Origin: Adineta vaga
Taxonomy: Eukaryota > Animalia > Rotifera
Length of the DNA: 64,000 bases
Assembly (NCBI GenBank): GCA_021613535.1
Contig: CP075492.1
Location: 8,133,653 to 8,197,652, forward strand
Direction of reading: 5' to 3'
Each line of letters opens with the position of its first letter. Within the stretch, counting starts at the first letter, position 1. The position numbers were made by a program, and so were the translations under genes. Positions 19,801 through 36,262 of the stretch are shown piece after piece. The notes under the pieces were generated by a model, which made no database searches, was not told where the DNA came from, and saw only the letters and a program-made list of their open reading frames with translations.

Positions 19801-22800
19801 ATATATTCAATGAGATTTACTTGATATTGCTTTTTCACTACTTTCACTTTCCATCTGATTGAGTTGTTGTGAAAGTGATGTAAGAACTTGTCCAACAACA
19901 TTCTGATTTCCACTTGAAAGTAATTGTACCATTGGATTATTTGACAATGCTGCATCCGATGAACTCATTTGTACATTACTCATCAAATCATTCATGCTAA
20001 CACTATCAACAATCACTTGAACAGATGACATATTCACTTCTGTCACACAATCAACAAGATCTCGAACATAAATAATCATATGTAATAATGATGTTTGTTC
20101 ATCTCCAGCTGGTAACCGAACTTGAAATTGAGAAACAGATGAAAATGCAACCATTACTTTCTTTGATATATCACTTGTCCATACTACAATCATCATTTTA
20201 TACAAACATACATACATACATTGATCATATTCACAAACTTCTCTACATACCATATAATGAATAATCTTTGACTCCATCTTCATCATACCAATTGGGACAT
20301 GAAACAGTAAATGAACTTGTTGTTGTTCCATTCTTTGGATTCATCGTGCATGAACCATTCGAAGGCGATTGATTGATAACAAAATTCAATGCACTTGTAC
20401 TTGATTCATTTGCAAATTGATAAACAACTTCGAATCGCCATAATCGAATACTTGGATTATCAACAAATAAACGATATGATGCTGTAAAGTTACTTGTATT
20501 GCTTCCTAAAAAAACAAATGCATTTTCATTTTCATTCACACAAAACAACAACAACAACATCTTTACCAAAAAACCAAATATTCTCATATGTAATCATTCG
20601 ATCGAACAAAGTCCATTGAGTAGAATTCGAAGATGAATTACTATCACTTTTATAAATATTCCAATGAATATCGACAAGATTTTCACAAACTCCAACACAA
20701 AATGCAAACAATGCAACTTGTGTTGTTGGATTGACTAGTTGAAATTCAAGATTTGGTGAACATAATGTTGATATCACACAACTACAAGTACATGAAAACA
20801 GATCATCACATATATCTAACACTTAATCATTGAAATGACTTTACCCAATAACAACCAATTTTGGAAGTGTATCTTCGATTGTCACAGTAACAAAGCCTGT
20901 GGCTTGAATCGAAGCATTCTTGCGATTTTCCATATAAACCATGAATTGATACATTTGATTCGATTGAAGAGTACCAGACAGAAGTGTTAACGATGATTTT
21001 GGTGAAGAAGTCAAATTACCAAAGATTAAACCTGTTCCATTATCTTTATTTCAATATAAAATGAAAATAGATAGAAATTCTCATCAATCTCTATTCACCA
21101 TTCCTACCTGACCGATCCGACAAGCATGATGGATTCAATGGATCACTTTTCGAATTTTCAATTGTTAACAATCGTCCTTGACTATTTGGAAAATTATATG
21201 AACCATACCATCGACAATAATAGTCATATTTCCATTTCTAAACCAAAATAAAACATCATTTCATGCAATAAATACTCCTACAAATTCCAATAAACAACAA
21301 TCAATTCTTATCTACACGAATAACTGAGCATTGCCAAGCACAAATCTGCTCTTATCAATGATTGACTTACAAATGATCATCATTATCTACTAACATTCAT
21401 TTCAGTATAAAAATGTTAATTTATGACGATAGATTTCTATGCATGATCAAAAGATGACTGTTACTTACACTTGCATCGAATGCATCTTCATCAGGATCAA
21501 CTGAATACGATCCTGGATCAAGTTCAAGATCTTGTTCTTTACCACGTGTGATCATCGATGTTCCCAATGGAACAGGATTTGCTGTAATTCCTGATGGAGT
21601 TATCATGACATGAACTGAAGAAGATGATTTTGCACTTGGAAACTGTTTCATTGATACAGTTAAAGTCAGTTCATACATTCCATAAGCAAAAGTTCTTGAT
21701 GGAGCATAGAATTCACTCAACGTTGTACGGATCTTGTCACTCAATCCAATTCGATAGAGACATGAAGTCGAAGTACAATTCTTCACTGACCATTGTATCA
21801 GAGTTGTAAGTGATGCATTACAACGAAACTGAATTGTTGAACTGATGGAAAAATCTTGATTTCGTCGATATTGCAGTGGTGATGTCAAAGATGATCCACC
21901 AGGAATAAGTGTAATCGTCGGTGAATAACAAACTAATATTCAAATAACAAACATATACAGTCATAGTTTATGTCTTGCTACTGTAATATAATAATGTCAG
22001 ATATAGTTACCTTTGAACTCTTCTGTTGTTGTTACTGATGTTGTGGTTGACATTGGGTCATCTAAAAAGAATATATAGATATTTTCAGAGAGAGACACAA
22101 TGAACAACTATTTCAAGATAAATGAAAGTGATTAACATACCGGTAGACGTAATAGATGTAGTAGATGTTGCGGTGGATGTTGAAGTGGATGTAGTGGACG
22201 TGCTAGTAGACGTGCTGAATGAGGTGGTGGACGTGCTAGACGTGGTGGTGAATGTGCTGGTGGACGTGGCGATAGTAGTACTGGTGGACGTTGAAGTGGA
22301 TGTACTGGATGTGGTGGAAGACGTCGTAGTGGACGTGCTAGACGAGACGGTGGACGTACTGGACGTGGTGGTAGACGTCGTACTGGACGTGCTCGTGGAC
22401 GTTGAAGTGGATGTTGAACTGGATGTGATAGTGAATGTACTGGACGTGGTGGTAGAAGTACTGGTGGACGTTGAAGTGGATGTAGTGGACGTGGTGGTAG
22501 ACGTCGTAGTAGACGTGCTGAATGAGGTGGTGGACGTGCTAGACGAGATGGTGGATGTACTGGATGTGGTGGAAGACGTCGTACTGGACGTGCTCGTGGA
22601 CGTTGAAGTGGATGTTGAACTGGATGTGATAGTGAATGTACTGGACGTGGTGGTAGACGTCGTAGTAGACGTGCTGAATGAGGTGGTGGACGTGCTAGAC
22701 GAGATGGTGGATGTACTGGATGTGGTGGAAGACGTCGTACTGGACGTGCTCGTGGACGTTGAAGTGGATGTTGAACTGGATGTGGTGGTAGACGTGCTAG

Positions 22801-25800
22801 TTGAGGTACTGGATTGTGTTGCACTTGTCATCAAACTCGTTTCTTGCATATTATTTGTTCCAGTAGCTACTGTTGTTGGCACGCCAGATGTAAAAGGCAT
22901 CATACTCGTTTGAATCGTCGTCGGTGAGCCTGCAAATAATTAAGTTTAGACAGGTATTTCTTCACTCTAACACAGAACTAGTTGCTCAATATCACTTATT
23001 ATCTCTCTTTCAACAACTATGATATTCTCACTACTACTTCTTCCTCACAACAATTACTTACTACAATTCGTTTTCTGAGCAGAAAACATTTGAATTCGAC
23101 TATTATTTCGATCAGCAACATACATATTCCCATAACTATCAAATGCCATACTTTGTGGAAATGACAATTGACTTGCACTTGAACCACTAATACCATTACA
23201 ACCAACAATACATCGAAATCCATAAGGACCTGATCCAATGATTCGATGATTATAACTATCCACAATAAATAAATAACCGCTTTTATCCATCACAACTCCA
23301 CTAGGACAACGCAAAGTCATATCTCCGGATGATGAACCATTGCCAACAACAGTCTCTGCACTCATTTGTCCTATTGCTGACATACGCTGAATTCGATCAT
23401 TTCCACAGTCTGCAACATACAAGTTCATATTGCTATCCACATAGATTCCTTGAGGAAAACTAAGCATATTCGATGCTGATCCTGCACTTCCATTTCCTAA
23501 TATCACCCATGGAATACTTGTACCATTATTCAGTGAAACTTGTACTACTTGATGAATATCACGAAGTGAACAATACAAAGAATTATTACTATCAACAAAT
23601 AAACCATAACAACTTCCGTTCACCTTCATTACAGTCGTTACAATTGATGAATTAAATGAAAACTTATCTACTCGACCATTTGCATATCCATTATCAACAT
23701 AAACATCACCAGCCAATGAAACAAAAGTACTGTATGGACGATTCAAATTACCAGAGTTATTTCTTGTTGGTGTACTATCATACTGTGACCATATTAAAAC
23801 AATGTTATTCGATTGACTTGCAACATAAACAGTATTGATTCCATCAATGAAGATACCATAGGGTAATGAACCAATAGTAGTACTCGATGCAAATGTTGAT
23901 GCATTGGCAAACCATGAAGCATCGAAACAAAAGTTTGGTTGATTGTATGAAATACCTAGATGGACAAATGCATCAATTACCATTACAATAAAGTGTCTAC
24001 ATCAAAGAACGAATAGAAAACATCACTCACTACATGAATTGCTTGCTAAGAGAAACTTTTGAACTCGATAATTGACTTGATCAGCAACAAAGATATTTCC
24101 ATAACTATCGAAACTGAATTCTCGTGGACTATTCAGTTGACTAGATGATGAACCTGCAACTTTTGTACAACCAAACAAACATCGAAATCCATATGGACCT
24201 GATCCAATGAGTCGATTATTGTAGTTATCAGTTACAAATAAATATCCATTACCATCAAATGCAATATCATTTGGACAGTCAAATGTAAAGGTACCTGGTG
24301 CACCATTACCAGCTATGGTAATAGCATTCATTTGTCCCAAAGGAAACATTTGAATTCGATCATTACCACAATCTCCAACATATAAATTAAACTGATAGTC
24401 AACATAAATTCCACAAGGATAGTAAAGATCGCTTGCAGCTGAACTAGCACCACCTGTACCAGCTGCTATTGTATTAGTTGTGTCATTATTAGACAACCAT
24501 TTCTTTGCAACTCGATGACTGCCAGTCATTGAACAGTAGAGAGTATTAGTTGTGTCGACAAACAGATCATAACATTGTGCAGTAATTGTCATAGCCGATA
24601 TACCACTCGTGGAACTTGGACCCCATTTGTCTACTCGACCGTAACTGAGACCATTATCAAGATAAATATCACCGGAAAGTGTTGCGAAAATACTTAATGA
24701 TCCATCCATTCCACCAGTCAAATTTCTGTCAGGAAGAATACTTCCTTCTCTCCATACATATGATTGATCATTTAGCCAGCTAGGTATATAAACAGTATTA
24801 TTAACATCAACGAAGACTCCATAAACATAAGTATTAAGTATTCGAGTGTCTGCAAAAGTAACACCATCAGTATACCAAGTGGCGGATGGACAAAACTTCG
24901 GCTGATTGAAAGAAAAAGCTAGAATGAAACAAATAAAACTTAATGAGAAGAAAAATCACTACCTTCATGTCATGTCATCAATGTTTAAACATAGTTTTCA
25001 ACAAAGACTCAATTATAAGAAATCGTTCGTGAGATCAAAATCGACCACTCATTCGCATCATCAATATCGCTCATTGAACAGTCGATATATTCACAACTAT
25101 CTATCACCCTATTACTGAGTACATCATACTTACGATAAGTCGTATTTGGTTGTAGAATAAACTTTTGTATACGATAATTAATTCGATCAGCGACATAGAT
25201 ATTTCCATAGCTGTCAAAACTCATAGTTGATGGCAAATACAAACCACTTGATGTGCTACCAGCAGCGCCTGTACATCCAACTAAACAACGAAAACCATTC
25301 GATCCTGATCCAACAATACGATGATTACTACTATCCAAAATGAACAAATATCCATCACCGTCCAGCATCACATCACTAGGACAACTGAGTGAAATGGTCC
25401 CTGCGGCTGATGCACCTGCTATTGTAGTTGCAACTAATTGCCCTGATTGAAAGAGTTGAACGCGATTATTGCCACAATCAGCAACATACAGATTGAGAGA
25501 AGTGTCTACAAAAATCCCACGAGGCAAATAAAGCTTATTAGCAGTTGAACCAGAACAGTATGTTCCAGCACCGATAGTCCACATCGTAGAATTGTTATTT
25601 AACGATGTCATTGCAACTTGATGATAATCATACAATGAACAATAAAGATTGTTGCTGACATCAATAAAAATATCATAACATATATATTTAACAGACATGA
25701 CTGATGTTCGTATTGTTCCATTTGATGTATATTTATCAACACGCTTATATGAATATCCATTATCAATATAAATATCACCTGTTACTGTAGCAAAAATACT

Positions 25801-28800
25801 ATATGTATAGCCCACATCAGTTGTTATAGTACGACTAGGTGTAGTGCTTCCTTCGAGCCAAATTTGAATCTTGTTATCACCTCTATTTGCAACGTAGACA
25901 GTATTGTTTTTATCGACAAAAATACCAAAGGGTTCGACGCCCACTGTTGTACTCGTAGCGAATGTAATTGCATTTCCACTCCATATTGCATATGGACTAA
26001 ATTTTGGTTGATTGTATGAAATAACTATAACAAAATCACATTATATTTGGTTTTCATCGGGAGTTTTTTGACAACTGTGAAATTCTTCTACCTCAAAGTT
26101 ACTCATATAAGTCCTGTTGCGACGAAAACTGCATCATCATGATGCATATCATCGTTCTTTTATAAATAATCGAAATCAACAAAAGAGGAAATAGAAAAAT
26201 ACATGCATGTGTATGATTTATGTTGTCTCTTTCGACGACGAAATGAGTAGTGAATCTGATGAGAAACTTGCAATATCAATCTTTTTGTCCTTGTCATCTC
26301 TAATAGTAGAATAGATGATATAGATCATATAGTATCAGTGTTTGTCATAAGCTTTCTTACAAACGATGATCTATCATGTCAACTGAAACGGTAGTCTTAT
26401 TATTCGTAATCTCGCATGTATCATATTGTTAACGTAGCAGCTCTCGGAATTCTATCTTTTTCTCTCTCTCTCTCTATCTACCTTGTTATCTTTGTTTTCT
26501 ATTCTTCTATACATATATATATATATGTGTGTTCTTGTATGAAGAGGTTAGTTAGGTTTTTATTTTATATAAATAAACATCGTCAGCTCGAATACGAGCT
26601 AACATATTGGTGCCGTGACCGGTCTTTTTCTATTTTTTTCCATCGAAAAAGAATCAAGTACCAGGTCTTTATAAACTCATCCTTCATCAGGAAAGAGTGA
26701 TTATTATTTCATCCGTGACGGAAAGAGAGTCAGGTGAATTCATCAATCAAAATTATTAATTATAATTACTGAAATTATTCAGTCGAAGAAGGTATAGTAT
26801 TCTTCACATATACGATTCGCTTTCATTCTTTGAAAATATCTATACGAACACGGCTGACGGCATTCGAAGAAGAACAAAGAGAATAAGTGCAAACCTTTAT
26901 CCATACGAAATAATAACGTAATCATCAAAACAAACACGTCGGCAAAACACACGAAAAATTTGTCTATACACAACATGACGAAAGACACCGCATTAAACAA
27001 TACCTCGACGAACGAAACGCACTCGGACGATACGATGACGAAAAACACCTCGATGCTGATGGGAGCAACGAAAAATACCTCGACCGATGTGAACCCGATG
27101 GAACTTCGACAATTACATTCCAGTCAACAGGAAGCCATGAAGAAAATTAATGAGTATTCGGGAGAATCTAATGAATTGGATATTGATGAATGGTTATATG
27201 ATCTAACTAATTTATTCTCGCTAATGCAATTACAAGATGAAACAAAAATATTGTTGACGATGGGAAAATTAACCGGATCAGCATTACGATGGTATCAAGG
27301 AAATTTAACATCATTTGGTGATTGGAAGGAAGCAGAAGAAGCATTACGAGATCGATTCAAAACATTCACGTCAGATGGTCAATTAGTACAAGAATTCTTC
27401 CAGCTTCGACAAGAAGAAGATCAATCAACTACAGCATTTTACGATATGGTTATGCGCAAATATCGAAAAGCAAGTGGATTAGTTACTGAAAAACAAATCA
27501 TTACGGTACTACAAGCAGGTGTGAAACATTCATTGAAGGAACAATTAATTCGAAATGAAGTTAATATCTCGAAACCCGAAGAATGGCTGCTGATGGCAAG
27601 GGAAGAAGAACATATACAACGACGAATTCAACAACGCAATACACCACCACGAGCAGCAACACAAATACCATATTTCGAATCAACATTACCGACGGCAACA
27701 ATTCAACAATCATCATCGCATCGCCGATACGCACAACAACATGCCGGTGGAAATCAACAGGAATATCAACCATATGAACGACGTTCAAGTACAGTACGAC
27801 AACAACCAAATAATCGACGGAATACGACTCAACGGTCGAAACCATGTTTAATCTGCAATCGAACGAACCATTCGACGATGCAATGCTTCTATAAGAAGGA
27901 AGATGGTTGCTTTAGATGTGGACAGTCAAATCATCGAATACGTGATTGTCCGCAACGTTATTTTTTCGAGTAAAGGGATCGGTTGATGGCGACGATCCTT
28001 GTGGACTTCAAAAGTCATCATCATCGACAACAACATCAACATCATCACTTACAACAACAACTGAAACATACAATCCAATCTTTGTCAAAATCTTATGCAA
28101 TAATACTCCACAAGAAGCACTAATCGATACAGGATCGGCCATCACAATAATTCACAAACGTCTATTGAACAAGATCCCGCACAAACAATTTATACCACGA
28201 CTAAAGAATCATCTATCAGCCAGTTGCTCAGCAGTGAACATTATCGGCGAAGTAACATTATTCATCAATATCGAAGGAATTACGACTCAAGTGACTGCTG
28301 ATGTAGCAACAAATCTCGTTACAAATTTAATACTTGGTAGTGATTGGATTCAAACAAACAATGTATACATATTAACTCCCGAAAAGCGAATTATGATGAA
28401 AAAACGAGGTAGAGAAGTATCAACTCCTTTTATAAAACCACCAATTTTGAACTATCCAGCAACACTTGTTAATTATATTACACTTTCTCCTTTTTCAGAA
28501 CACATTATAGAAGCTCAACTGCAACAAGAAAAGATAGTCGATGCATTATTTGAACCAAATCCTCATTTACAACGTAAAGCATTATTTATGGCATGTACAT
28601 TACTTAACATCAACGACGGAAAAGCAACGATCAGTATCATAAATGCAACGAATCGACGACAAACACTTTCGGAAGGCACACGGATTGGTATGGTGACACA
28701 GATGGCAAATTCGGTTAATCTTATAGTACCATCGAACCATCCCGATGAACGCATTCCGAAAGGAAAAGCGTGTGAACAGCTCATTCCGAAAGGAAAAGTA

Positions 28801-31800
28801 GCGAATGAAGGAATTAGCAATGCCAGTTCGGAACATCGACAGACAACAACAACAGACAACACCGAGCACAAATGTCGAAACTGTTCACAACGATTCGTCG
28901 CAAAGAACGATTTATTCAAACACCTGCGTGAACAATGTTATCCTGATGAAATACGGGAACAAATTGGAAAATTAACTTCACATATTTCCGACGATACGCA
29001 ACGAAACAAGATCACGAATGTCCTATGGAGATACGGAAATTTATTCGATCTTCGACAACCATCAAAGATTGACATTATTTTGAAGAATGCAATCGACACA
29101 GGTATTCATAGACCAGTACATACTCCACCATATCGCAAATCCAACAGAGACCAAGAAACATTACGTGAAGAAACACAAAAACTACTGGAAAATGATATTA
29201 TTGAACATTCAACGTCGCCATGGTCATCACCTGTAGTACTAGTTAAAAAGAAAGATGGAACAACAAGATTTTGTGTAGATTATCGTCGACTCAATCAAAT
29301 TACAACTAAAGATGCTTTTCCATTACCACGAATTGATGATATTTATGATCAATTAACCCAAGCAACATATTTTAGCAAATTTGATTTCAAAGCAGGTTAT
29401 TTTCAAGTACCATTAGACAAAGCCGATCGACCAAAAACAGCATTTTCTACAAGAGATGGTCATTTCCAATTCAAAGTATTACCACAAGGACTTACAAATG
29501 GACCACCAACTTTTCAACGAATTGTCAATCAAATACTCGGTCCGAATCGATGGAAGCACATGTTGGCATACATCGATGATATTATAATATATTCACGAAC
29601 ATTTCTTGAACATGTACAACATATTGAAGAAGTATGTTCATTATTGCATGACGCAAATTTCAAGTTAAATATAGTAAAATGTGAAATCGCACGTACAGAA
29701 ATATTATTTCTCGGACACATCATCAAGCAAGGTACAATTCAACCAGATCCAGAAAACATCCGTGATTTAGCAGATGTTCGTGAACCAACATCAGCAGAAG
29801 AGGCATTCCGATTCGTCAAAGCTGCGGAATATTATCGCAAATTCATTCCAAAATTCTCGATCATTGCAGCACCACTACACAAATATTCACCAACAACATT
29901 ACAACAGCAGAAGAATAACAAGAAAACAAAATTCGAAATAACAGAAGAAGCACGAACAGCATTTCATCAACTGAAGCACATCTTAACAACGGATCTTATC
30001 CTCAATTTACCTGATGATGATATGCAATTTAAATTACAAACGGATGCAAGTGTCGATGGAATTGGTGCTGTTCTATTACAAATTACACCAAACGGTGATC
30101 GACCACTAGCATACATGTCGAAGAAATTAACCAAAACACAAATTAACTGGCCTACCATCGAACAAGAATGTTATGCAATTGTTCAAGCTGTGGAGAAATG
30201 GGACAAATATCTTCGTGGACAGGAATTTATTTTAGAAACAGATCATGAACCATTAGTCCACTTCAACAACAAAGAACAACTGAACAAAAGGTGTGAACGT
30301 TGGCGATTGCGACTAGCTGAATATCGATTCAAGGTGAAGCATATACAAGGTAAGAAGAATAATATGGCAGATTATTTATCTAGATCACCGGTGGAAATAG
30401 CTCATGAAGATAACGACGACCGACTTCAATATGAAACGAAATCAACACAAACAGAAACATCATCACCAACGTCCAACCATGAACATCCACCTGTACGAAT
30501 AATCACAGCTATTACACGAGCTCAAGCAAAATTACAACAGCAGAATGAGCTCATCCCGCAAGGGAAAGAAGCGAAAACTCAATCGGAGGATGATCCGAAT
30601 CGGATCATACCCTTCGATTTGGACGATCTCAGGGAAGCACAGGAACGAGATGATGTCGTGAAACAAATTAAAACCAACATCAACAAACAAAAGCAATATA
30701 CAATAGAAGACGGATTATTATTACGAAGACAAAAATCATCAATTTTAGCAGTACCATTTGTTTCACAGGGAAGAATGCGTGCTGATATTTTGAAAATTTA
30801 TCATGATACACCTGGTAATGGTGCACATTTTGGTCGTGACAAAACAGTACGAAAAATACAAGAACGATATTACTGGCCAACAATGACAGCAGATATTGAA
30901 AATCATGTCAAATCCTGTTTACCATGTGCACAGAACAATCATCGTCGTCAAAAACCACCAGGAAAATTACAACCAATACCACCACCTGATGGAATATGGA
31001 AAGTACTTAGTATGGATTTCCATGGACCAATAAATCCAACAACACGACGAGGTAATCGATACATTATATCATTAACCGATGTCTTATCAAAATTCGTCAT
31101 AACAAAAGCAGTTCGCGATTGTTCAGCAAAAACAACAGTTGATTTCCTTACCAACGATGTTATCTTGAAATATGGAACACCAACATGCATTTTAACTGAT
31201 AATGGTACTCACTTCACAGCAGAAACAACGAACAATTTACTTATGAAACTTGGTGTCACTCATTTATATACAACAGCTTATCATCCACAAACAAATGGAC
31301 AAATTGAACGTTTTAATGCAACAATGGATGGTAAAATAGCATCATTATGCAACGAACAACGTACAGATTGGGATGAAATGTTACAATTCGTTACATTTAA
31401 TTACAACACATCCATACATGCAACAACAAAACATACACCATTTGAAATGATGCACGGTCGACAAGCTAGTCTTCCATTCGATCAACAACGGACACTTATT
31501 TCACTTACAAACGACACTGAACATGGAGAAAAACTTCGAAATTACCTGGAAAAATTAACAGATGATGCACGGAAAAATATTCATAAATCTCAGCAACAAT
31601 ATAAGACTCGATATGATCAACATCGACAAGAATTATCGATCAAAATTAATGATTTAGTCCTGATTAAAACCAGAAGTTTTCGAAACAAATTCGATATTAG
31701 GTACGAAGGTCCATTTCGAATTATCGAACAATTAGGAAGAAAAACATTCATTGTACAACATGTGAAGAAAACAACATTAACAAAACAAGTTACAATGGAT

Positions 31801-34800
31801 GTCATCGTTCCATTAGTAGAACGATGGAATTTACATGACTAAACACATCCCACTAGGGAAAGGTGTAAATCGACTGTGAACATAATTGACTTCATTAAAA
31901 TGTATATTTATATTTATATGAATAAAATACATGAATTTGATTTAGCAGATCATGTCGGGGAGATAGGTTTCCCCTTCTCACTGATAAGATGGGGCTATCA
32001 AAGATATATATATATATCACATAGTCATATATGTATAAGCGACATCTATTTTTTTCTATTCATATGAACATTTAATCGATATATCATGGCGATCACGTGC
32101 AGACGACATGATACGACGGATGATCCATATGGACGAAGCCGATTACCTTACAAGAACACGACACGGTCGATCTCACCACATCACAGAACAGGAAAGAAAA
32201 AGATGTAAACAAGATCATATAGTCATGCCACTTTCATCTATACGCGTATATGACGACGCGAGTATTTATATATATATATATACCCAGGTCGAAAAATCCG
32301 AGCCGGATCCGGTCGGAACCAAAATATTCCGGTCATTTCATGGAAGCAGGATTCCGACCCGGATATTTTCGGATTTTTCCACTCGCTTCTGACTAACTTC
32401 CAGTAAGTTCCAGTCGGAAAACGACTGGAATTCACCAGAACAGTCCGAGAAATTCCGATCGGAATACTGCTTCCACTCTCCTTTGTTTTCCGGTTGGAAC
32501 CTTTTGGAACTAGCTGAAACCGTCCGGAATATCCTCGGAAATGCGTGATTTCTGGCAGGTTCCTTTCGGATCCGGAGGCCGGAACGTCCGTTCTGGGTAT
32601 AACGGACAGGAAAGAAAGAAAAAAGGACAACAAAGGAATGAAAAATTTTAGGAAACGAAAAACAAAAGCATGGAAAATTACGAAGAAAAACAGAAGAAAG
32701 AAGAACGAAAGGATAACCTTTCACCGGAGTGACCGTCGCCAGACTATCAAGTAAATCACTTTATTTACTTTATTTATTTTCTAATAGTAGAATGCACTCA
32801 ACAAAATCACCAAAATCAAGCTGGATGAGAAACCAACGACAGATGGAGAAGAATGAAGAACTTCGAGGATTACATCCCGAATATCGTCCATCAGCAAATC
32901 TCGAAATTGTCCACGTACATCATCGATCGACCATACAATCAATCGAAGAATTAATAAAAAAGGCAATACAAACAAGAAGATTCGTCGTCGATACAGAATC
33001 TCAATGGAAAATATTACGAAAAGGTGAACCTCGAACAAATGGAGCTTTGATCCAAATCCAGATGATACATTCACCAAGCAAGTCAACAGTGGTCCTCATC
33101 GAAACATGTTATCTACCAGGCACAACATCAACGTTATACAAGAAAATCAAACAATTGTGTGACACCATCTTCGACAACAACAATGAAATTATCACATGGG
33201 GACCAATCGAGCAAAAATTTGAGCCTTTTCATCATTTAAATTTCATTCATTTAGGAGCAATTCGTGAATGTGACTTGCAATTCTACATTAGCAATCCAAG
33301 TCAAATTTATGATTCGCATCCAGAAATGGAAAGGCGAGAGACAACCGGAAATGTGTCGATGGAAATCAACACACCTGGTGATGAACTTATCGTCCATGTG
33401 GACGAGGATGATTTGTGGAACTTCGACGATAATCTCGGTAATTTTCGAAAAAAAGAAAAATTGAATCCACCTTTAGGTTTACAAGCCGTCGTGGCCGAAA
33501 ACTTCAACAAATTTCTGGACAAATCGTACACAAAAAATGAATGGAACTGTGGATTAGATCTTCATTTAGGAACATGGCAAGAAAAACGATTTAGCAAAGG
33601 TCAATATGATAAATATCAAGAACAACAAGAACGTACAGAAATGATACGATATGCCGTCAACGATTGTGCATCGGTTGCTGAACTTTACTTTGAAAAATAT
33701 CCGGAAACAACGAACGATTACTTGACACCACCAGAAACGCCAACAACAACAATCATTCAAATTTCACACCTGAACACAATCTCCTCTTCGAATGAACAAG
33801 AATTAAGTCAACGATCAAAATCAAATCATGGTGAGACATTGACTAAAAAAGAAATATATTTAGATCGACCAGATTTGTTATTCAAAATGAACGAAGATGA
33901 ACTTGTACAATTTCAACAACCAGTATTCGACAAAGTGGAAGAACCAGTTCAACAAGCACAACAACCAGTTCCACAACAATTTCAACGAACACCTGAAGAA
34001 GAACATCAAAAGAAGAAAGAAAGACAAAGGAAGAAGAACGAAAAATACAAGGAGAAGAAAAGAACTCGTCCAGATTTTATAAATCGTCTAACAAGACCCA
34101 TCTACTACAAATACAACTACCAAAAAATTCGAGCTCAACTGATAGACGATGAAATACATCACACACATCAAATCAACATTAATGAAGACAAAGATGCAGT
34201 GACGATCAACTTCAAGTCCCGAGAGTTACTTGAAGCAGCAAGAACAAAAATGCGGGTGAATTATTTTTCAGAAAATCAATACTACAGGAGATGGGGAAGA
34301 AGAAAAGAAGAAAAAAAGAAGAATTAGTGGTGGTGGTGATTCACATGTGTGAGGACACACGATCTCATACTGGTGGGGAAGAATGTTAACGTAGCAGCTC
34401 TCGGAATTCTATCTTTTTCTCTCTCTCTCTCTATCTACCTTGTTATCTTTGTTTTCTATTCTTCTATACATATATATATATATGTGTGTTCTTGTATGAA
34501 GAGGTTAGTTAGGTTTTTATTTTATATAAATAAACATCGTCAGCTCGAATACGAGCTAACACATATGATTTGTGAGATCTATGCATTGATCAACTATTCA
34601 AAAGTATGATTGTCTCTCATACTCTTCTCAACTTGTTTTTTTTCCTTGATCGATTTTCATCAATCATTCTCACTGACCTTTCCAACAACTTATTCATAAT
34701 TCACTATCGATATTTGCACCCTTAGAATTATAGTTCAAAAGATCTGTACGAAAAAGTACACTAAACAATCAGATTACCATTTGAATAAGAACTTGGCACA

Positions 34801-36262
34801 GAGGATGCACTTGTTGGAATGATGCTCGATGATGCTGTTACTAAAAAAGGATAAAAGCAATTGTTTATCAATATCGAAATGAGAATGAGAGTGTGATTAA
34901 CATACCAGTAGCAGTTGTTGTTGTAGTTGACGTTCCATCTACAATAAATAAACTTGCCTTTAATTGTCATATTAAGATCGCTGATAAAGACAGATCTAAC
35001 TGATGAACTATCTAAGCTATTCTCATTTGGAATATACAAATAGTTCTATTCTAATAAACAAAGTCTCAATCAAGTCTGAACAGTATCTTGCAGAGAAATA
35101 ATTGTACTTACTACAAACATTTGTTGATATAAGAAATTTTTGAACTCGATTGTTATCTCGATCAGTGATAAATATGTTTCCATAAGTATCGAAACTGAAA
35201 CTCGATGGACTATCTAATTGAGAAGATGATGAGCCACTTCCACTGCATCCCAACACGCAGCGAAAACCATACGGTCCAGAACCAACAACCCGAAAATTCT
35301 CGCTATCGAGAATAAAAAGATAACCATCAGCATCAAGTGCTACATCTGTAGGCGAATTGAGTGTAATAGTTCCTGCAGCTGAAGCACCTGCTACAGCTGT
35401 TCCAGTCAGTTGACCATATGCATACAATTGAATTCGATGATTGCCTGAATCCGCAAGATATAAATTCAGATTGATATCAACAAAGATTCCGCGTGGATAA
35501 CAGACTGTTGTCGTTGTGGATCCGCAAGCAGCTGTACCTGCTACAATGCTCCAAAGATTTAAACGATTAGTCAGTGAATTGCTGGAAACTTGATGATTAT
35601 CATACATAGAACAGTAAAGATTATTATTCGTATCAATGAAGAGATCATAACATGTTCCACATGTATACAACGCTGGGATGCTGTCAGTAGAATTCGTTTG
35701 CCATCGATCAACTCTATTATTTGTTTGGCCATTGTCAACAAAAATATCACCATTATCAGTGGCAAACACACTATATGGAAGATTTAAACCACTCGAAAGA
35801 TTTCGAATAGATGTTGTACTTCCTTCTAACCACACATGAACTCGACTGGATTCGCGATTTGCTATATAAACGGTATTGTTGGAGTTGACAAAAATACCAT
35901 TAGGAGTTGAGCCAACAATTGTATTTGTTGCAAATGTTAAGGCCGTTGCATTCCATGATGCATTCGGACAAAATTTTGGTTGATTGTACGAGATAGCTGA
36001 AAAAGAAAAAAATGACAATTTTCGCTCTAAACAAATTACTCATATCAATCTTTTCTAACTGATCCATTTCTCTCCTCATATTTGTCTCTCATGAGAATTG
36101 TTCAGTACAAATCTCTCGACAAAAACTATGACTATTATCAGCAACATCTATCTCATTTTGACAATGAAAACAAGAAAACACAATCTTTCAAAGATACTTA
36201 CCAACTGCTCCATCAATAATCAACAAAAAACACCAGAAAGTGAGATGATGAAATCTTGCCAT
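13816..36262 (-). CDS. Very large multi-exon gene for a secreted polycystin-1/REJ-like (PKD1-like) receptor-channel with four N-terminal NHL beta-propeller modules; spans the LTR retrotransposon, which sits in one of its introns
   Basis: Exon chain traced by eye. Signal-peptide exon, then NHL1, two S/T linker exons, an intron containing the LTR element, then NHL2, NHL3, NHL4. These are followed by the S/T tandem-repeat exon, a 51-nt exon, the REJ-region exons, GPS+TM1, PLAT, TM exons, the polycystin extracellular domain, the 6TM channel and a C-terminal tail. All N-terminal exons checked are phase 1-1 with canonical GT/AG. Exon boundaries in the REJ/TM region were not all traced. Confidence 0.6.
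14036..14797 (-). CDS. PKD-channel (TRPP-like) pore-forming transmembrane exon
   Basis: Multiple TM helices with the polycystin cation-channel pattern (FFRFNHRVSLFTETLRIAANELIQFFLMFSIVYMSYLTLFYLLF...GPFCFTLFIFVVVFVCLSMFLSIINDSF). The C-terminal tail exon at 13816..14001 probably ends the gene. Confidence 0.6.
   Translation of the reverse strand: MYLAFTSVLQIVCTILCMLFIIYFMKVEIQSVIQLKTRYFRQFWSIIQIGIIVCSWTSVGVYIWRFRESARVSNLFEKTNGYVYINLQLAAYVNDILTYLLGYCCFFGMIKFVHFFRFNHRVSLFTETLRIAANELIQFFLMFSIVYMSYLTLFYLLFVSKLSSCSSLLSTAQMLFEITLMKFDATELIEAGAFLGPFCFTLFIFVVVFVCLSMFLSIINDSFRRAKETRIEDQIILSFMWKKFIQYTGKSVY
14825..15472 (-). CDS. Polycystin (PKD1/PKD2) extracellular loop domain exon
   Basis: TIEQYWNWLENSFVDNLRAQQWYNGD...YVGEHETYRGGGYVYEFRGS...QLEWIDSKTRAVFIQMTLYNPNV, the conserved polycystin-domain pattern between channel TM1 and TM2. 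Confidence 0.6.
   Translation of the reverse strand: MTIEQYWNWLENSFVDNLRAQQWYNGDAARYLNGYLNDKSNRLIGWAMMRQLRIKTELCDDQRLITRCEHSYSIFNEDKRSFEPGWINETTMVTMSGGKYSSSIMKAFRYRSSDELDTYAYVGEHETYRGGGYVYEFRGSLSDMKKNLSQLHQLEWIDSKTRAVFIQMTLYNPNVKLLTSVTLLTEFLLTGGVFPSARFDPINFYSKYFLIIVCN
16921..17133 (-). CDS. PLAT/LH2 domain exon of the PKD1-like protein
   Basis: IRIWHDNSGAGSSASWYLKYIIVRDLETMEKFYFIAQKWLAVEQDDGRV, the typical polycystin-1 PLAT signature (WHDNSG...SWYL...V.DL.T...F.....WLAVE.DDG). Confidence 0.65.
   Translation of the reverse strand: MNVKKRIDEMIFRSLGLLNYIRIWHDNSGAGSSASWYLKYIIVRDLETMEKFYFIAQKWLAVEQDDGRVS
17477..17707 (-). CDS. GPS motif plus first transmembrane helix of the PKD1-like protein
   Basis: ECLSNHLTTFAGGFIVLPAPINWSYVF (C-x-C/H-L-T-x-F-A...L GPS consensus), followed by VYLTMICTSVLYIILMIYGRFKDKKD. 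Confidence 0.6.
   Translation of the reverse strand: MTNHYETECLSNHLTTFAGGFIVLPAPINWSYVFANADFMKNKTVYLTMICTSVLYIILMIYGRFKDKKDIEKVNM
21421..21965 (-). CDS. REJ-module exon of the PKD1-like gene (approximate bounds)
   Basis: Acceptor tattag|TTTGTTATTCACCGACG. The sequence SPLQYRRNQDFSISSTIQFRCNASLTTLIQWSV...YGMYELTLTV matches the REJ (receptor for egg jelly) module pattern. Further REJ-region exons run between ~18000 and 21250 (ORFs 18084..18512, 18545..18937, 19807..20331, 20243..20587). Confidence 0.5.
22141..22929 (-). CDS. Mucin-like Ser/Thr-rich exon (789 nt, phase 1-1) of the PKD1-like gene
   Basis: Acceptor ttatttgcag|GCTCACCGACG. Almost pure S/T composition with about five copies of a 52-aa unit. 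Ends ...ACC G|GTATGTTAATCAC. Confidence 0.6.
22200..22830. repeat. Tandem repeat, period 156 bp (52 codons), ~4-5 copies, encoding the S/T mucin-like region
   Basis: The string gacgtgctgaatgaggtggtggacgtgctagacgagatgg recurs at ~22516 and ~22672 (156 bp apart). Diverged copies lie at ~22213 and ~22360. Confidence 0.7.
23062..23955 (-). CDS. NHL beta-propeller cassette exon 4 (894 nt, phase 1-1)
   Basis: A 75-nt intron ends at ccatctag|GTATTTCATACAATCAACC, giving SISYNQPNFCFDASW. NHL blades are present (YGNMYVADRNNSRIQMF, GYLFIVDSYNHRIIGSGPYGFRCIVGC). It ends ...TNC+A at a |GTAAGTAATTG donor. Confidence 0.65.
24031..24918 (-). CDS. NHL beta-propeller cassette exon 3 (888 nt, phase 1-1)
   Basis: Acceptor ttcattctag|CTTTTTCTTTCAATCAGCCG gives (P)FSFNQPKFCPSATW. 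NHL blades are present (YGNIFVADQVNYRVQKF, GYLFVTDNYNNRLIGSGPYGFRCLFGC). It ends ...NSC+A at a |GTGAGTGA donor. Confidence 0.65.
25134..26024 (-). CDS. NHL beta-propeller cassette exon 2 (891 nt, phase 1-1)
   Basis: Acceptor ttgttatag|TTATTTCATACAATCAACC gives IISYNQPKFSPYAIW. NHL blades are present (YGNIYVADRINYRIQKF, GYLFILDSSNHRIVGSGSNGFRCLVGC). It ends ...PNTTY+C at a |GTAAGTATG donor. Confidence 0.65.
26427..26604 (+). repeat. 5' LTR (178 bp, TG...CA)
   Basis: Matches 34384..34561 exactly by eye. Contains (CT)7 and (AT)7 microsatellites. The six-frame ORFs 26416..26700 and 34349..34609 are simply the two LTR copies read through. Confidence 0.8.
26608..26619 (+). promoter_or_regulatory. 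Primer-binding site complementary to the 3' end of tRNA-His
   Basis: TGGTGCCGTGAC lies 3 nt after the LTR. Its reverse complement GTCACGGCACCA equals the canonical eukaryotic tRNA-His 3' terminus (...GAGTCACGGCA-CCA). Confidence 0.6.
26975..27973 (+). CDS. gag (capsid/nucleocapsid) with two CCHC zinc knuckles
   Basis: ATG at 26975. Zinc knuckles CLICNRTNHSTMQC and CFRCGQSNHRIRDC lie near the C-terminus. The stop is at 27971..27973. Confidence 0.75.
   Translation: MTKDTALNNTSTNETHSDDTMTKNTSMLMGATKNTSTDVNPMELRQLHSSQQEAMKKINEYSGESNELDIDEWLYDLTNLFSLMQLQDETKILLTMGKLTGSALRWYQGNLTSFGDWKEAEEALRDRFKTFTSDGQLVQEFFQLRQEEDQSTTAFYDMVMRKYRKASGLVTEKQIITVLQAGVKHSLKEQLIRNEVNISKPEEWLLMAREEEHIQRRIQQRNTPPRAATQIPYFESTLPTATIQQSSSHRRYAQQHAGGNQQEYQPYERRSSTVRQQPNNRRNTTQRSKPCLICNRTNHSTMQCFYKKEDGCFRCGQSNHRIRDCPQRYFFE
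27946..31842 (+). CDS. pol polyprotein: aspartic protease, reverse transcriptase, RNase H, integrase (Ty3/gypsy order)
   Basis: Protease LIDTGSA. RT motifs FSKFDFKAGYFQ and YIDDIIIYS. RNase H TDASVDGIGAVL. Integrase zinc finger H-x4-H...C-x2-C (HDTPGNGAHFGRDKT...CLPCAQN), DDE core (SMDFHGP ... LTDNGTHFT ... E) and a GPF/Y-like tail (RYEGPFRIIEQLG). Confidence 0.85.
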   Translation: MSATLFFRVKGSVDGDDPCGLQKSSSSTTTSTSSLTTTTETYNPIFVKILCNNTPQEALIDTGSAITIIHKRLLNKIPHKQFIPRLKNHLSASCSAVNIIGEVTLFINIEGITTQVTADVATNLVTNLILGSDWIQTNNVYILTPEKRIMMKKRGREVSTPFIKPPILNYPATLVNYITLSPFSEHIIEAQLQQEKIVDALFEPNPHLQRKALFMACTLLNINDGKATISIINATNRRQTLSEGTRIGMVTQMANSVNLIVPSNHPDERIPKGKACEQLIPKGKVANEGISNASSEHRQTTTTDNTEHKCRNCSQRFVAKNDLFKHLREQCYPDEIREQIGKLTSHISDDTQRNKITNVLWRYGNLFDLRQPSKIDIILKNAIDTGIHRPVHTPPYRKSNRDQETLREETQKLLENDIIEHSTSPWSSPVVLVKKKDGTTRFCVDYRRLNQITTKDAFPLPRIDDIYDQLTQATYFSKFDFKAGYFQVPLDKADRPKTAFSTRDGHFQFKVLPQGLTNGPPTFQRIVNQILGPNRWKHMLAYIDDIIIYSRTFLEHVQHIEEVCSLLHDANFKLNIVKCEIARTEILFLGHIIKQGTIQPDPENIRDLADVREPTSAEEAFRFVKAAEYYRKFIPKFSIIAAPLHKYSPTTLQQQKNNKKTKFEITEEARTAFHQLKHILTTDLILNLPDDDMQFKLQTDASVDGIGAVLLQITPNGDRPLAYMSKKLTKTQINWPTIEQECYAIVQAVEKWDKYLRGQEFILETDHEPLVHFNNKEQLNKRCERWRLRLAEYRFKVKHIQGKKNNMADYLSRSPVEIAHEDNDDRLQYETKSTQTETSSPTSNHEHPPVRIITAITRAQAKLQQQNELIPQGKEAKTQSEDDPNRIIPFDLDDLREAQERDDVVKQIKTNINKQKQYTIEDGLLLRRQKSSILAVPFVSQGRMRADILKIYHDTPGNGAHFGRDKTVRKIQERYYWPTMTADIENHVKSCLPCAQNNHRRQKPPGKLQPIPPPDGIWKVLSMDFHGPINPTTRRGNRYIISLTDVLSKFVITKAVRDCSAKTTVDFLTNDVILKYGTPTCILTDNGTHFTAETTNNLLMKLGVTHLYTTAYHPQTNGQIERFNATMDGKIASLCNEQRTDWDEMLQFVTFNYNTSIHATTKHTPFEMMHGRQASLPFDQQRTLISLTNDTEHGEKLRNYLEKLTDDARKNIHKSQQQYKTRYDQHRQELSIKINDLVLIKTRSFRNKFDIRYEGPFRIIEQLGRKTFIVQHVKKTTLTKQVTMDVIVPLVERWNLHD
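27961..27967 (+). other. Putative -1 ribosomal frameshift slippery heptamer UUUUUUC at the gag/pol overlap
   Basis: In the gag frame it reads T TTT TTC, 4 nt before the gag stop. pol is open in the -1 frame from 27946 and continues FFRVKGSVDGDD... through the heptamer. Confidence 0.5.
32280..32610. other. GC-rich island inside the retrotransposon, between pol and ORF3, dense in CCGGA/TCCGG/GGAAC/GTTCC motifs
   Basis: Local GC is far above the window background. It holds more than 15 occurrences of the CCGGA(A)/(T)TCCGG core, several as inverted pairs (ccggatccgg, tccggaggccgga). It is flanked by (TA)n runs and contains a CAG|GTAAGT-like donor at ~32404. The antisense ORFs 32238..32633 and 32338..32724 are artefacts of this composition. 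Confidence 0.5.
32792..34327 (+). CDS. ORF3 of the LTR retrotransposon: DEDDy-type 3'-5' exonuclease domain with a Lys/Arg-rich C-terminal tail (~511 aa)
   Basis: The ATG at 32792 sits directly after an acceptor-like tttattttctaatag. Exo I is FVVDTES (D-x-E) and Exo III is RYAVNDCASVAELYF (Y-x3-D), about 240 aa apart. Candidate Exo II acidic residues lie at HVDEDDLWNFDD. The C-terminus is basic: KKKERQRKKNEKYKEKKRTRPDF...RRWGRRKEEKKKN*. The stop lies 45 nt before the PPT. Confidence 0.55.
   Translation: MHSTKSPKSSWMRNQRQMEKNEELRGLHPEYRPSANLEIVHVHHRSTIQSIEELIKKAIQTRRFVVDTESQWKILRKGEPRTNGALIQIQMIHSPSKSTVVLIETCYLPGTTSTLYKKIKQLCDTIFDNNNEIITWGPIEQKFEPFHHLNFIHLGAIRECDLQFYISNPSQIYDSHPEMERRETTGNVSMEINTPGDELIVHVDEDDLWNFDDNLGNFRKKEKLNPPLGLQAVVAENFNKFLDKSYTKNEWNCGLDLHLGTWQEKRFSKGQYDKYQEQQERTEMIRYAVNDCASVAELYFEKYPETTNDYLTPPETPTTTIIQISHLNTISSSNEQELSQRSKSNHGETLTKKEIYLDRPDLLFKMNEDELVQFQQPVFDKVEEPVQQAQQPVPQQFQRTPEEEHQKKKERQRKKNEKYKEKKRTRPDFINRLTRPIYYKYNYQKIRAQLIDDEIHHTHQININEDKDAVTINFKSRELLEAARTKMRVNYFSENQYYRRWGRRKEEKKKN
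34384..34561 (+). repeat. 3' LTR (178 bp)
   Basis: Same sequence as the 5' LTR. Preceded by the polypurine tract GGTGGGGAAGAA (34372..34383) and followed by the CATAT TSD. Confidence 0.8.
34778..34840 (-). CDS. 63-nt Ser/Thr/Pro linker exon (VTASSSIIPTSASSVPSSYSN, phase 1-1)
   Basis: Acceptor ccttttttag|TAACAGC ... CAAATG|gtaatctg donor. It lies immediately upstream of the LTR retrotransposon's 3' LTR. Confidence 0.4.
34906..34938 (-). CDS. 33-nt Thr-rich linker exon (phase 1-1)
   Basis: Acceptor ttattgtag|ATGGAACGTCAACTACAACAACAACTGCTACTG|gtatgttaatcac donor. The donor sequence is the same as the one after the large S/T repeat exon at 22141. Confidence 0.4.
35112..35996 (-). CDS. NHL beta-propeller cassette exon 1 (885 nt, phase 1-1)
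   Basis: Begins (A)ISYNQPKFCPNASW after the acceptor cag|. It contains repeated NHL blades (YGNIFITDRDNNRVQKF, GYLFILDSENFRVVGSGPYGFRCVLGC). It ends ...NVC+A at a |GTAAGTAC donor. Confidence 0.65.
36202..36262 (-). CDS. Exon 1 of the PKD1-like gene: signal peptide MARFHHLTFWCFLLIIDGAV
   Basis: ATG on the minus strand at 36262. A 20-codon hydrophobic leader is followed by a G|GTAAGTA donor. An intron of ~200 nt ends at tttttctttttcag, just before the NHL1 exon. Confidence 0.55.

Follow-up and report, generated by a model that had tools for sequence, protein, structure and literature searches.

The closest described systems are the long terminal repeat (LTR) retrotransposons Juno and Vesta of bdelloid rotifers, which have acquired a third open reading frame (ORF3) encoding an RNase D-like protein of the DEDDy exonuclease class (Rodriguez, Kenefick and Arkhipova 2017, Viruses 9:78; PMC5408684). 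In that account, DEDDy ORF3s reside in Juno1/2 and Vesta2/5 and carry a change of DEDD to DEED, related ORFs occur in Penelope-like elements of the Athena/Terminon type, the ORFs have no transmembrane or coiled-coil domains, and in a phylogeny they form a group separate from the cellular proteins RNase D, Mut-7, WRN and Rrp6. Besides the DEDDy ORF3, Juno1/2 are distinguished by a second gag knuckle, an extra zinc knuckle upstream of the reverse transcriptase (RT) and a GPY/F integrase motif. Processing of 3' ends is proposed anew in a review (Arkhipova and Yushenova 2019; PMC6431247), and a search of the available literature library found no later functional study of a DEDDy ORF3. Here we consider a 64,000-nt stretch of the Adineta vaga genome (assembly GCA_021613535.1, contig CP075492.1, positions 8,133,653 to 8,197,652, forward strand; hereafter the window, to which all coordinates refer), which in all likelihood harbours a recently inserted, structurally intact Juno1/Juno2-like Ty3/gypsy LTR retrotransposon, with ORF3 as the accessory gene typical of this group.

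The resemblance to Juno1/2 is manifold. As in these elements (and in Vesta2/5), a third ORF lies between pol and the 3' LTR, it specifies an RNase D-like DEDDy domain whose family shows the DEDD-to-DEED change, env-like transmembrane or coiled-coil features are missing and the family is confined to bdelloids. The adjacent gag knuckles (CLICNRTNHSTMQC and CFRCGQSNHRIRDC) stand at the gag C-terminus, a C-RN-C-x12-H-x4-C finger precedes RT (pol residues 308-328; weak Pfam zf-C2H2 match, E 0.05-0.45), and the integrase bears a GPF motif (...IRYEGPFRIIEQ...) near the pol C-terminus. The LTRs, like those of Juno and Vesta, are short, end in TG...CA and are mutually identical, their 178 bp falling within the reported range of 159-551 bp. 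The element is called Juno1/2-like on these published diagnostic traits. Unlike the described elements, it represents a new lineage (best full-length ORF3 match 61-62% identical, best partial match 75%), carries a substitution designated E142K, and shows an RNA recognition motif (RRM)-like C-terminal domain, spacer hairpins and a nested foldback that the text of PMC5408684 does not mention. The original prediction, made from the sequence alone, noted that bdelloid LTR elements have been reported to capture extra ORFs, including exonuclease-like ones, and this is correct; its description of the feature as unusual does not stand in the sense of new, the retrotransposon-encoded DEDDy exonuclease having been published in 2017. 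The window element is a new, fairly divergent example of it.

ORF3 as a gene of the retrotransposon

The element that hosts ORF3 is an intact Ty3/gypsy-type LTR retrotransposon of 8,135 bp (26427-34561), whose two perfectly matching LTRs are bounded by a perfect 5-bp CATAT target duplication. Its principal parts are as follows.

26422..26426, forward strand: left target-site duplication CATAT; the same 5-mer recurs at 34562-34566, just outside the LTRs
26427..26604, forward strand: 5' LTR, 178 bp, 100% identical to 34384-34561
26608..26622, forward strand: primer-binding site TGGTGCCGTGACCGG, 3 nt past the 5' LTR and kept in the leaders of related loci L001, L002, L006 and L012
26960..27973, forward strand: gag, 337 residues, with two adjacent CX2CX4HX4C zinc knuckles (Pfam Retrotrans_gag 1.6e-7, zf-CCHC 2.8e-5)
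27961..27967, forward strand: -1 frameshift slippery heptamer T TTT TTC in the gag/pol overlap, read directly from the sequence
27946..31842, forward strand: pol, comprising protease (PR), an extra C2HC zinc finger, RT, RNase H and an integrase with GPF motif
32792..34327, forward strand: ORF3, 511 residues, with a DEDDy-type exonuclease domain, a disordered linker, a basic helix and an RRM-like domain
34372..34383, forward strand: polypurine tract GGTGGGGAAGAA, abutting the 3' LTR
34384..34561, forward strand: 3' LTR, 178 bp, same as the 5' LTR
34562..34566, forward strand: right target-site duplication CATAT

The pol frame is -1 relative to gag, and pol matches Pfam RVT_1 (7.9e-37), RT_RNaseH (1.9e-34), Integrase_H2C2 (4.1e-20), rve (3.1e-11) and gag-asp_proteas (3.6e-5). 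No further copy or solo LTR of the element is present within the 64-kb window. ORF3 is situated 3' of pol and 5' of both the polypurine tract and the 3' LTR; it was originally described as a 511-codon ORF at this place, outside the gag-pol core, and the ORF listing (ATG at 32792, stop codon ending at 34327) together with the element anatomy bears this out. A longer, GTG-initiated reading would start at 32729, and the start of the homologues corresponds to the ATG.

How deeply is this gene rooted in the element lineage? A search of a 5.8-billion-protein collection returned 69 homologues (E 3e-204 to 8e-34), the best full-length ones 61-62% identical and the closest partial one, P0004, 75% identical; those with a species name all come from bdelloid rotifers of the genera Adineta or Rotaria. 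Searching 1.84 billion cluster representatives (50% clustering) with a profile extended the family to 758 representatives at E ≤ 1e-3, including 201 at E ≤ 1e-30, and those distant members that carry a species name are likewise from bdelloids (Rotaria magnacalcarata, Adineta steineri, Didymodactylos carnosus). The original prediction had proposed looking for ORF3, and for purifying selection on it, in other copies of the element. At all nine informative related loci (L001, L002, L006-L009, L010/L011 and L012) the homologue stands downstream of gag and pol and is read in the same direction; these loci cover six distinct homologues and come from different assemblies and metagenomes; L003/L004 of Adineta ricciae, where the ORF lies at a contig end, are uninformative for gene order. 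The ratio of nonsynonymous to synonymous divergence (dN/dS, Nei-Gojobori) is 0.19 against L001 and 0.18 against L002, compared with 0.13-0.14 for pol and 0.19-0.31 for gag, all of these values being approximate, as dS is near saturation (1.15-2.27). Given the homologues, the recurrent gag-pol-ORF3 order and the dN/dS values, ORF3 is a conserved internal gene of this element lineage, under purifying selection across related elements. The same three lines of evidence rule out a chance ORF.

They also bear on the idea that ORF3 is a host exonuclease gene that adjoins this one copy or has recently been trapped in it, for which nothing speaks except that DEDDy exonucleases are usually encoded by cellular genes. 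ORF3 lies inside the LTR pair and the target duplication, the gene order just described recurs with six distinct homologues, the homologue P0001 was found on 16 contigs of which 12 span 5-10 kb, i.e. roughly the element length, and the published phylogeny separates retroelement DEDDy ORFs from cellular ones; a host gene is accordingly so improbable that it can practically be set aside.

A further observation concerns the histories of pol and ORF3. The pol proteins of the window element, L001 and L002 are equidistant, at 73-74% amino acid identity, whereas ORF3 is 66% identical between the window and L001 and only 50% identical between either of them and L002. Because pol is equidistant and ORF3 is not, the sequences hint at different histories of pol and ORF3, consistent with modular exchange.

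The exonuclease domain and its Exo II position

Judged by its predicted fold, ORF3 is very probably a DEDDy 3'-5' exonuclease of the RNase D/Mut-7(Nibbler)/RRP6/WRN type, with the family signature D-E-E-D-y. The relevant features are the following.

32879..33721, forward strand: exonuclease (DnaQ-like/DEDDy) domain, residues ~30-310, from the AlphaFold2 (AF2) model and Foldseek matches
32990..32998, forward strand: Exo I, D67-T-E69, invariant in 33/33 close homologues; in distant ones D in 48/52 and E in 49/52
33215..33217, forward strand: K142 (AAA), the inferred Exo II acidic position, where relatives have E in 79/85 and D in 1/85
33650..33664, forward strand: Exo III, Y287-A-V-N-D291, invariant in 33/33 close homologues; in distant ones Y in 49/52 and D in 48/52

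The close set consists of 33 aligned homologues, to which an 85-sequence alignment adds 52 distant members. The AF2 model, built on the 33-sequence alignment, has a mean confidence score (pLDDT) of 74.7, and in the exonuclease core most 10-residue blocks reach 85-97, save for a dip at residues 71-80 and an acidic, low-confidence insertion of 47 residues (174-220). The modelled core adopts a DnaQ-like alpha/beta fold. Searched against the PDB with Foldseek, it retrieved the EXO domain of Nibbler (4.5e-6), human RRP6 (1.4e-5), the RNase D enzymes of T. brucei and E. coli (4-5e-5; RNase D 4.9e-5) and WRN-exo (1e-4), each with a probability of 1.0 and with a TM-score of ~0.6 when normalised to Nibbler or WRN. 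The best 24 matches are all DEDD-type, mostly DEDDy, exonucleases, including NrnC (E 4.5e-6 to 3.7e-4, probability 0.99-1.0). The two motifs on which the original prediction had founded its exonuclease assignment lie in secondary-structure elements of the model: VVDTES occupies residues 65-70, with D67 (32990-32992) and E69 (32996-32998) within a strand (63-70), and the Y-x3-D of YAVND lies within a helix (274-302). Both the assignment and the structure prediction suggested for checking it thus hold up, and the five-column signature D-E-E-Y-D, complete in 76/85 relatives and D-E-D-Y-D in one more, extends them to the family.

Like the cellular DEDDy exonucleases Nibbler/Mut-7, RNase D, RRP6 and WRN-exo (PDB 7jw2, 1yt3, 3saf, 2fbx), ORF3 therefore combines a DnaQ-like fold with Exo I D-x-E and Exo III Y-x3-D, and it has in common with RNase D an LDKS...W block preceding Exo III, the only segment that hhalign aligned between the 33- or 85-sequence alignment and the single E. 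coli RNase D sequence (E ~0.04-0.08). It differs from them in its low sequence identity (~10-15%), in the family Glu in place of Asp at Exo II, in the 47-residue acidic insertion, in an RRM-like C-terminus instead of an HRDC domain, and in being encoded by a retroelement. Four residues of the domain, H43 (32918-32920), H176 (33317-33319), C253 (33548-33550) and C292 (33665-33667), are invariant in the 33 close homologues but vary among the distant members. Together they might make up a zinc site comparable to the Cys-His-Cys motif noted for Vesta2/5 and Maelstrom.

The motif class originally named, DEDDy, needs qualification at its third residue, which is Glu in the family and Lys in the window copy. 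Column 142 opens a helix (139-149) that follows strand 4 (132-135), and it initiates the hydrophobic pattern E-F-x-x-F (E-h-x-x-F), mirroring D-L-x-x-F of RNase D. It is taken as Exo II because it is the sole conserved acid of that segment and because the acid is lost together with catalytic residues: four of the five other sequences without an acid at this column have also lost other catalytic positions (P0138 reads DKKYD, P0165 DEKSR and P0169/P0194 AEAYI). The window ORF3 is the only one of the 85 in which column 142 alone is altered. Since its nearest relatives, P0004 and P0005, have Glu here, K142 looks like a private change of the window copy rather than the state of the family; GAA to AAA at codon 142 is a single transition, and with the two LTRs identical, E142K could even have been introduced during the reverse transcription from which this copy arose. 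With a Lys in place of the inferred Exo II carboxylate, the window-copy protein is probably catalytically impaired, if column 142 is indeed the Exo II metal ligand, while the family enzyme is likely active.

It is conceivable, then, that ORF3 as such is a catalytically dead, RNA-binding derivative of the DEDD fold, comparable to Maelstrom or EXD1, whose sole task in the retroelement ribonucleoprotein (RNP) would be RNA binding or chaperoning. The Lys at the inferred Exo II position, the RRM-like domain and basic helix described below, the absence of several catalytic residues from each of P0138, P0165, P0169/P0194 and P0200, and the Maelstrom/EXD1 analogy raised in PMC5408684, where activity was undemonstrated, would all fit such a protein. 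Yet the preservation of the complete D-E-E-Y-D set in 76/85 relatives at ~40% overall identity is hard to explain without catalysis, and K142 seems private, given the Glu of the nearest relatives; a dead nuclease is thus quite unlikely.

Several points do weigh against the interpretation of the element as a Juno1/2-like retrotransposon with a selected, functional exonuclease gene. The profile search against Pfam PF01612 that had been suggested as a check gave a mixed answer, in that the window ORF3 stays below the cut-off (E = 0.055; 13.7 against 23.6 bits) and aligns in the Exo III region only, although 23/33 homologues match at E ≤ 0.1, the best at 1.5e-5. The family hidden Markov model (HMM), run against PDB sequences, found no solved exonuclease at E ≤ 1. 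Its sole result, CsuE (E = 0.61), is spurious. The sequence-profile signal for the window copy being weak, the exonuclease assignment rests on family and fold. The identification of column 142 with Exo II is putative, drawing on topology, conservation, co-loss and the published DEED statement. The authors of PMC5408684 state that catalytic activity is undemonstrated, and they saw no departure from neutrality in the intragenomic evolution of these ORFs; the near-saturated dS of our own comparisons belongs here as well. All Juno elements carry a dUTPase according to the same paper, and all Vesta and TelKA elements according to the literature, whereas the window pol gives no Pfam dUTPase match at E ≤ 10 between PR and RT (residues ~155-386, 28400-29100), a region of the right length in which the domain may be highly divergent or lost. 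Finally, the signals from which ORF3 might be expressed look like a candidate splice donor/acceptor pair as sequence motifs only.

The C-terminal module

Behind the exonuclease domain, the original prediction had seen a Lys/Arg-rich end of ~90 residues that would bind nucleic acid or act as a nuclear localisation signal. The last 90 residues do contain 26% Lys plus Arg, with an isoelectric point of 10.1, so that the composition was seen rightly; the basic residues, however, are concentrated in residues 398-429 and the last eight, and what lies between is a conserved folded domain (residues 430-503). A mere polybasic tail or localisation signal is thereby replaced by a basic helix and, after it, an RRM-like fold.

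33983..34078, forward strand: basic alpha-helix (AF2), residues 398-429, 44% Lys plus Arg, with a conserved RQRxKNxK motif
34079..34300, forward strand: RRM-like beta-alpha-beta-beta-alpha domain, residues 430-503

In the model, the exonuclease domain is joined via a disordered linker to these two parts. Compared with solved RRMs, the C-terminal domain shows the beta-alpha-beta-beta-alpha-beta, ferredoxin-like arrangement, and N416 (kept in 74 of the 77 residues present), R435, L450, I472 and F492 are nearly invariant across the wider family. It can be called RRM-like only, because no Pfam RRM match was obtained in 23 members at E ≤ 1 and because strands 1 (RPIYYKY) and 3 (VTINFKS) possess aromatics without the canonical RNP consensus. 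A general Pfam scan of the domain gave no consistent family, and a search of viral folds in BFVD gave nothing at E ≤ 0.001, its weak top matches being RRM proteins.

Relatives of 650-840 residues (P0105, P0107, P0114, P0117, P0125 and others) consist of the DEDDy domain, a middle segment and the same C-terminal module. The middle segment appears GDSL/SGNH-like by eye (SDSHGK..., GTNS), and these proteins match the DEDDy+GDSL fusion ORF3 already on record. The C-terminal module is thus the common denominator of these retroelement accessory ORFs. The L1 ORF1p of non-LTR retrotransposons contains an RRM. CR1/L2-type ORF1p comes with an esterase (PMC5408684), and in this respect non-LTR ORF1p resembles the ORF3 family, both being accessory proteins in which basic or helical segments accompany either an RNA-binding fold of the RRM type or a GDSL/SGNH esterase; in the longer ORF3 relatives, DEDDy, GDSL-like segment and RRM-like C-terminus are united.

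Might ORF3 instead substitute for env, as a membrane-active or entry/exit protein conferring infectivity? In favour are its location where env would sit, after pol and before the 3' LTR, the fusion of the exonuclease with a GDSL-lipase-like segment in related ORFs, and the mention of this formal possibility in PMC5408684. The protein, however, has no hydrophobic or transmembrane segment (maximum Kyte-Doolittle mean over 19 residues 0.99), neither model contains a signal peptide or transmembrane-like helix, the folds present are those of a nuclease and an RRM, and PMC5408684 itself reports the ORFs to be without coiled-coil and transmembrane domains. An env-like function is consequently rejected as highly improbable, in agreement with the original prediction, which had judged the ORF not to be env-like.

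Expression signals, possible roles and significance

The non-coding parts on either side of gag-pol deserve attention in connection with the exonuclease gene. The pol-ORF3 spacer measures 949 nt, versus 487-736 nt in the five relatives whose pol stop is intact (L001, L002, L006/L007, L010), and three of its blocks are kept among elements whose ORF3 proteins share only 40-66% identity.

26789..26797, forward strand: leader motif AGAAG/GTAT (slash at the presumed cut), candidate splice donor; AGAAGGTAT is identical in the window, L002, L006 and L012 and diverged in L001
31843..31871, forward strand: hairpin CACATCCC-N4-GGGAAAGRTGTG, directly after the pol stop codon, in 7/7 aligned spacers
31936..32006, forward strand: stem-loop of ~70 nt in the spacer, with covariation in six elements
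32151..32270, forward strand: non-coding block including CCACATCACAGAACAGGAAAG, candidate splice acceptor or promoter, 78% identical over 120 nt to Adineta ricciae L003/L004
32283..32597, no strand assigned: nested 315-bp foldback, miniature inverted-repeat transposable element (MITE)-like, with nested inverted repeats and TA repeats on its flanks

In the ~70-nt stem-loop, 94% of the cells are paired across six DEDDy-bearing Juno-like elements and 8/23 pairs show compensatory changes, a level that 0/500 shuffles reach, with slid controls at 0-4. Scanning the entire element against Rfam (E ≤ 1) gave only three sub-threshold chance matches. The 3' arm of the first hairpin is purine-rich and resembles a polypurine tract. 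The 120-nt block is similar between the window and L003/L004 despite a mere 41% protein identity of their ORF3 (P0027) to that of the window, and it holds CCACATCACAG/AACAG at 32176-32192. The conserved spacer and leader blocks may serve as signals for a spliced ORF3 mRNA or for RNA-protein recognition.

The excess length of the spacer is largely the 315-bp foldback (minimum free energy -137.5 kcal/mol, z = -8.3). It sits between two blocks that are contiguous in L003/L004 and is also absent from the L001 spacer; the probable explanation is a MITE-like sequence that inserted into the retrotransposon and does not belong to its ancestral form, and no second copy was found within the 64-kb window. 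Placed between a conserved spacer block and ORF3, it would form part of the ORF3 5' untranslated region if the ORF3 mRNA includes it, and the window ORF3 is possibly poorly translated.

As to the insertion site, the genes flanking the element (23054-25944 and 35023-36018, reverse strand) are tandem paralogues, NHL-repeat-like by eye, with flanking repeats (25939-26048 and 35911-36020) that are 71% identical; a Ser/Thr-rich low-complexity ORF lies near the element, listed with region 22085-22913, and the gene adjoining the related element in L002 has a weak Pfam NHL match.

What might ORF3 do for the element? The protein would probably be translated from a spliced subgenomic mRNA, like retroviral env, using the leader donor AGAAG/GTAT and, as candidate acceptor, CACAG/AACAG in the conserved spacer block. 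Its C-terminal module would be RNA-binding, the most plausible target being the transcript or RNP of the element itself, and would bring the exonuclease to the 3' ends of RNA or of single-stranded cDNA for trimming during replication. A bolder and quite tentative proposal, which by analogy with ORF1p we hold to be possible though on balance unlikely, is that the basic helix and RRM-like domain are a portable RNA-targeting module that delivers different enzymes to retroelement RNA or RNP, the enzymes seen being DEDDy alone or DEDDy with the GDSL-like hydrolase segment, and that the spacer hairpin at 31936-32006 is its binding site or a control element of ORF3 expression. Under such an arrangement the exonuclease could be directed to retroelement RNA or cDNA and shorten it from the 3' end, or else it could trim host small RNAs, the latter being considered because the best fold match is Nibbler, a piRNA/miRNA trimmer.

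For the family of retrotransposon-encoded DEDDy exonucleases, the locus adds another divergent and apparently very young example, valuable as a clean, fully delimited reference copy. It contributes details beyond the published description, namely the RRM-like domain, the structured spacer RNA and the E142K allele, the last of which is a natural variant that could provide a ready-made negative control for any future assay of the protein. The RRM-like domain, being common to the whole ORF family, offers a plausible way for the nuclease to find its substrate.

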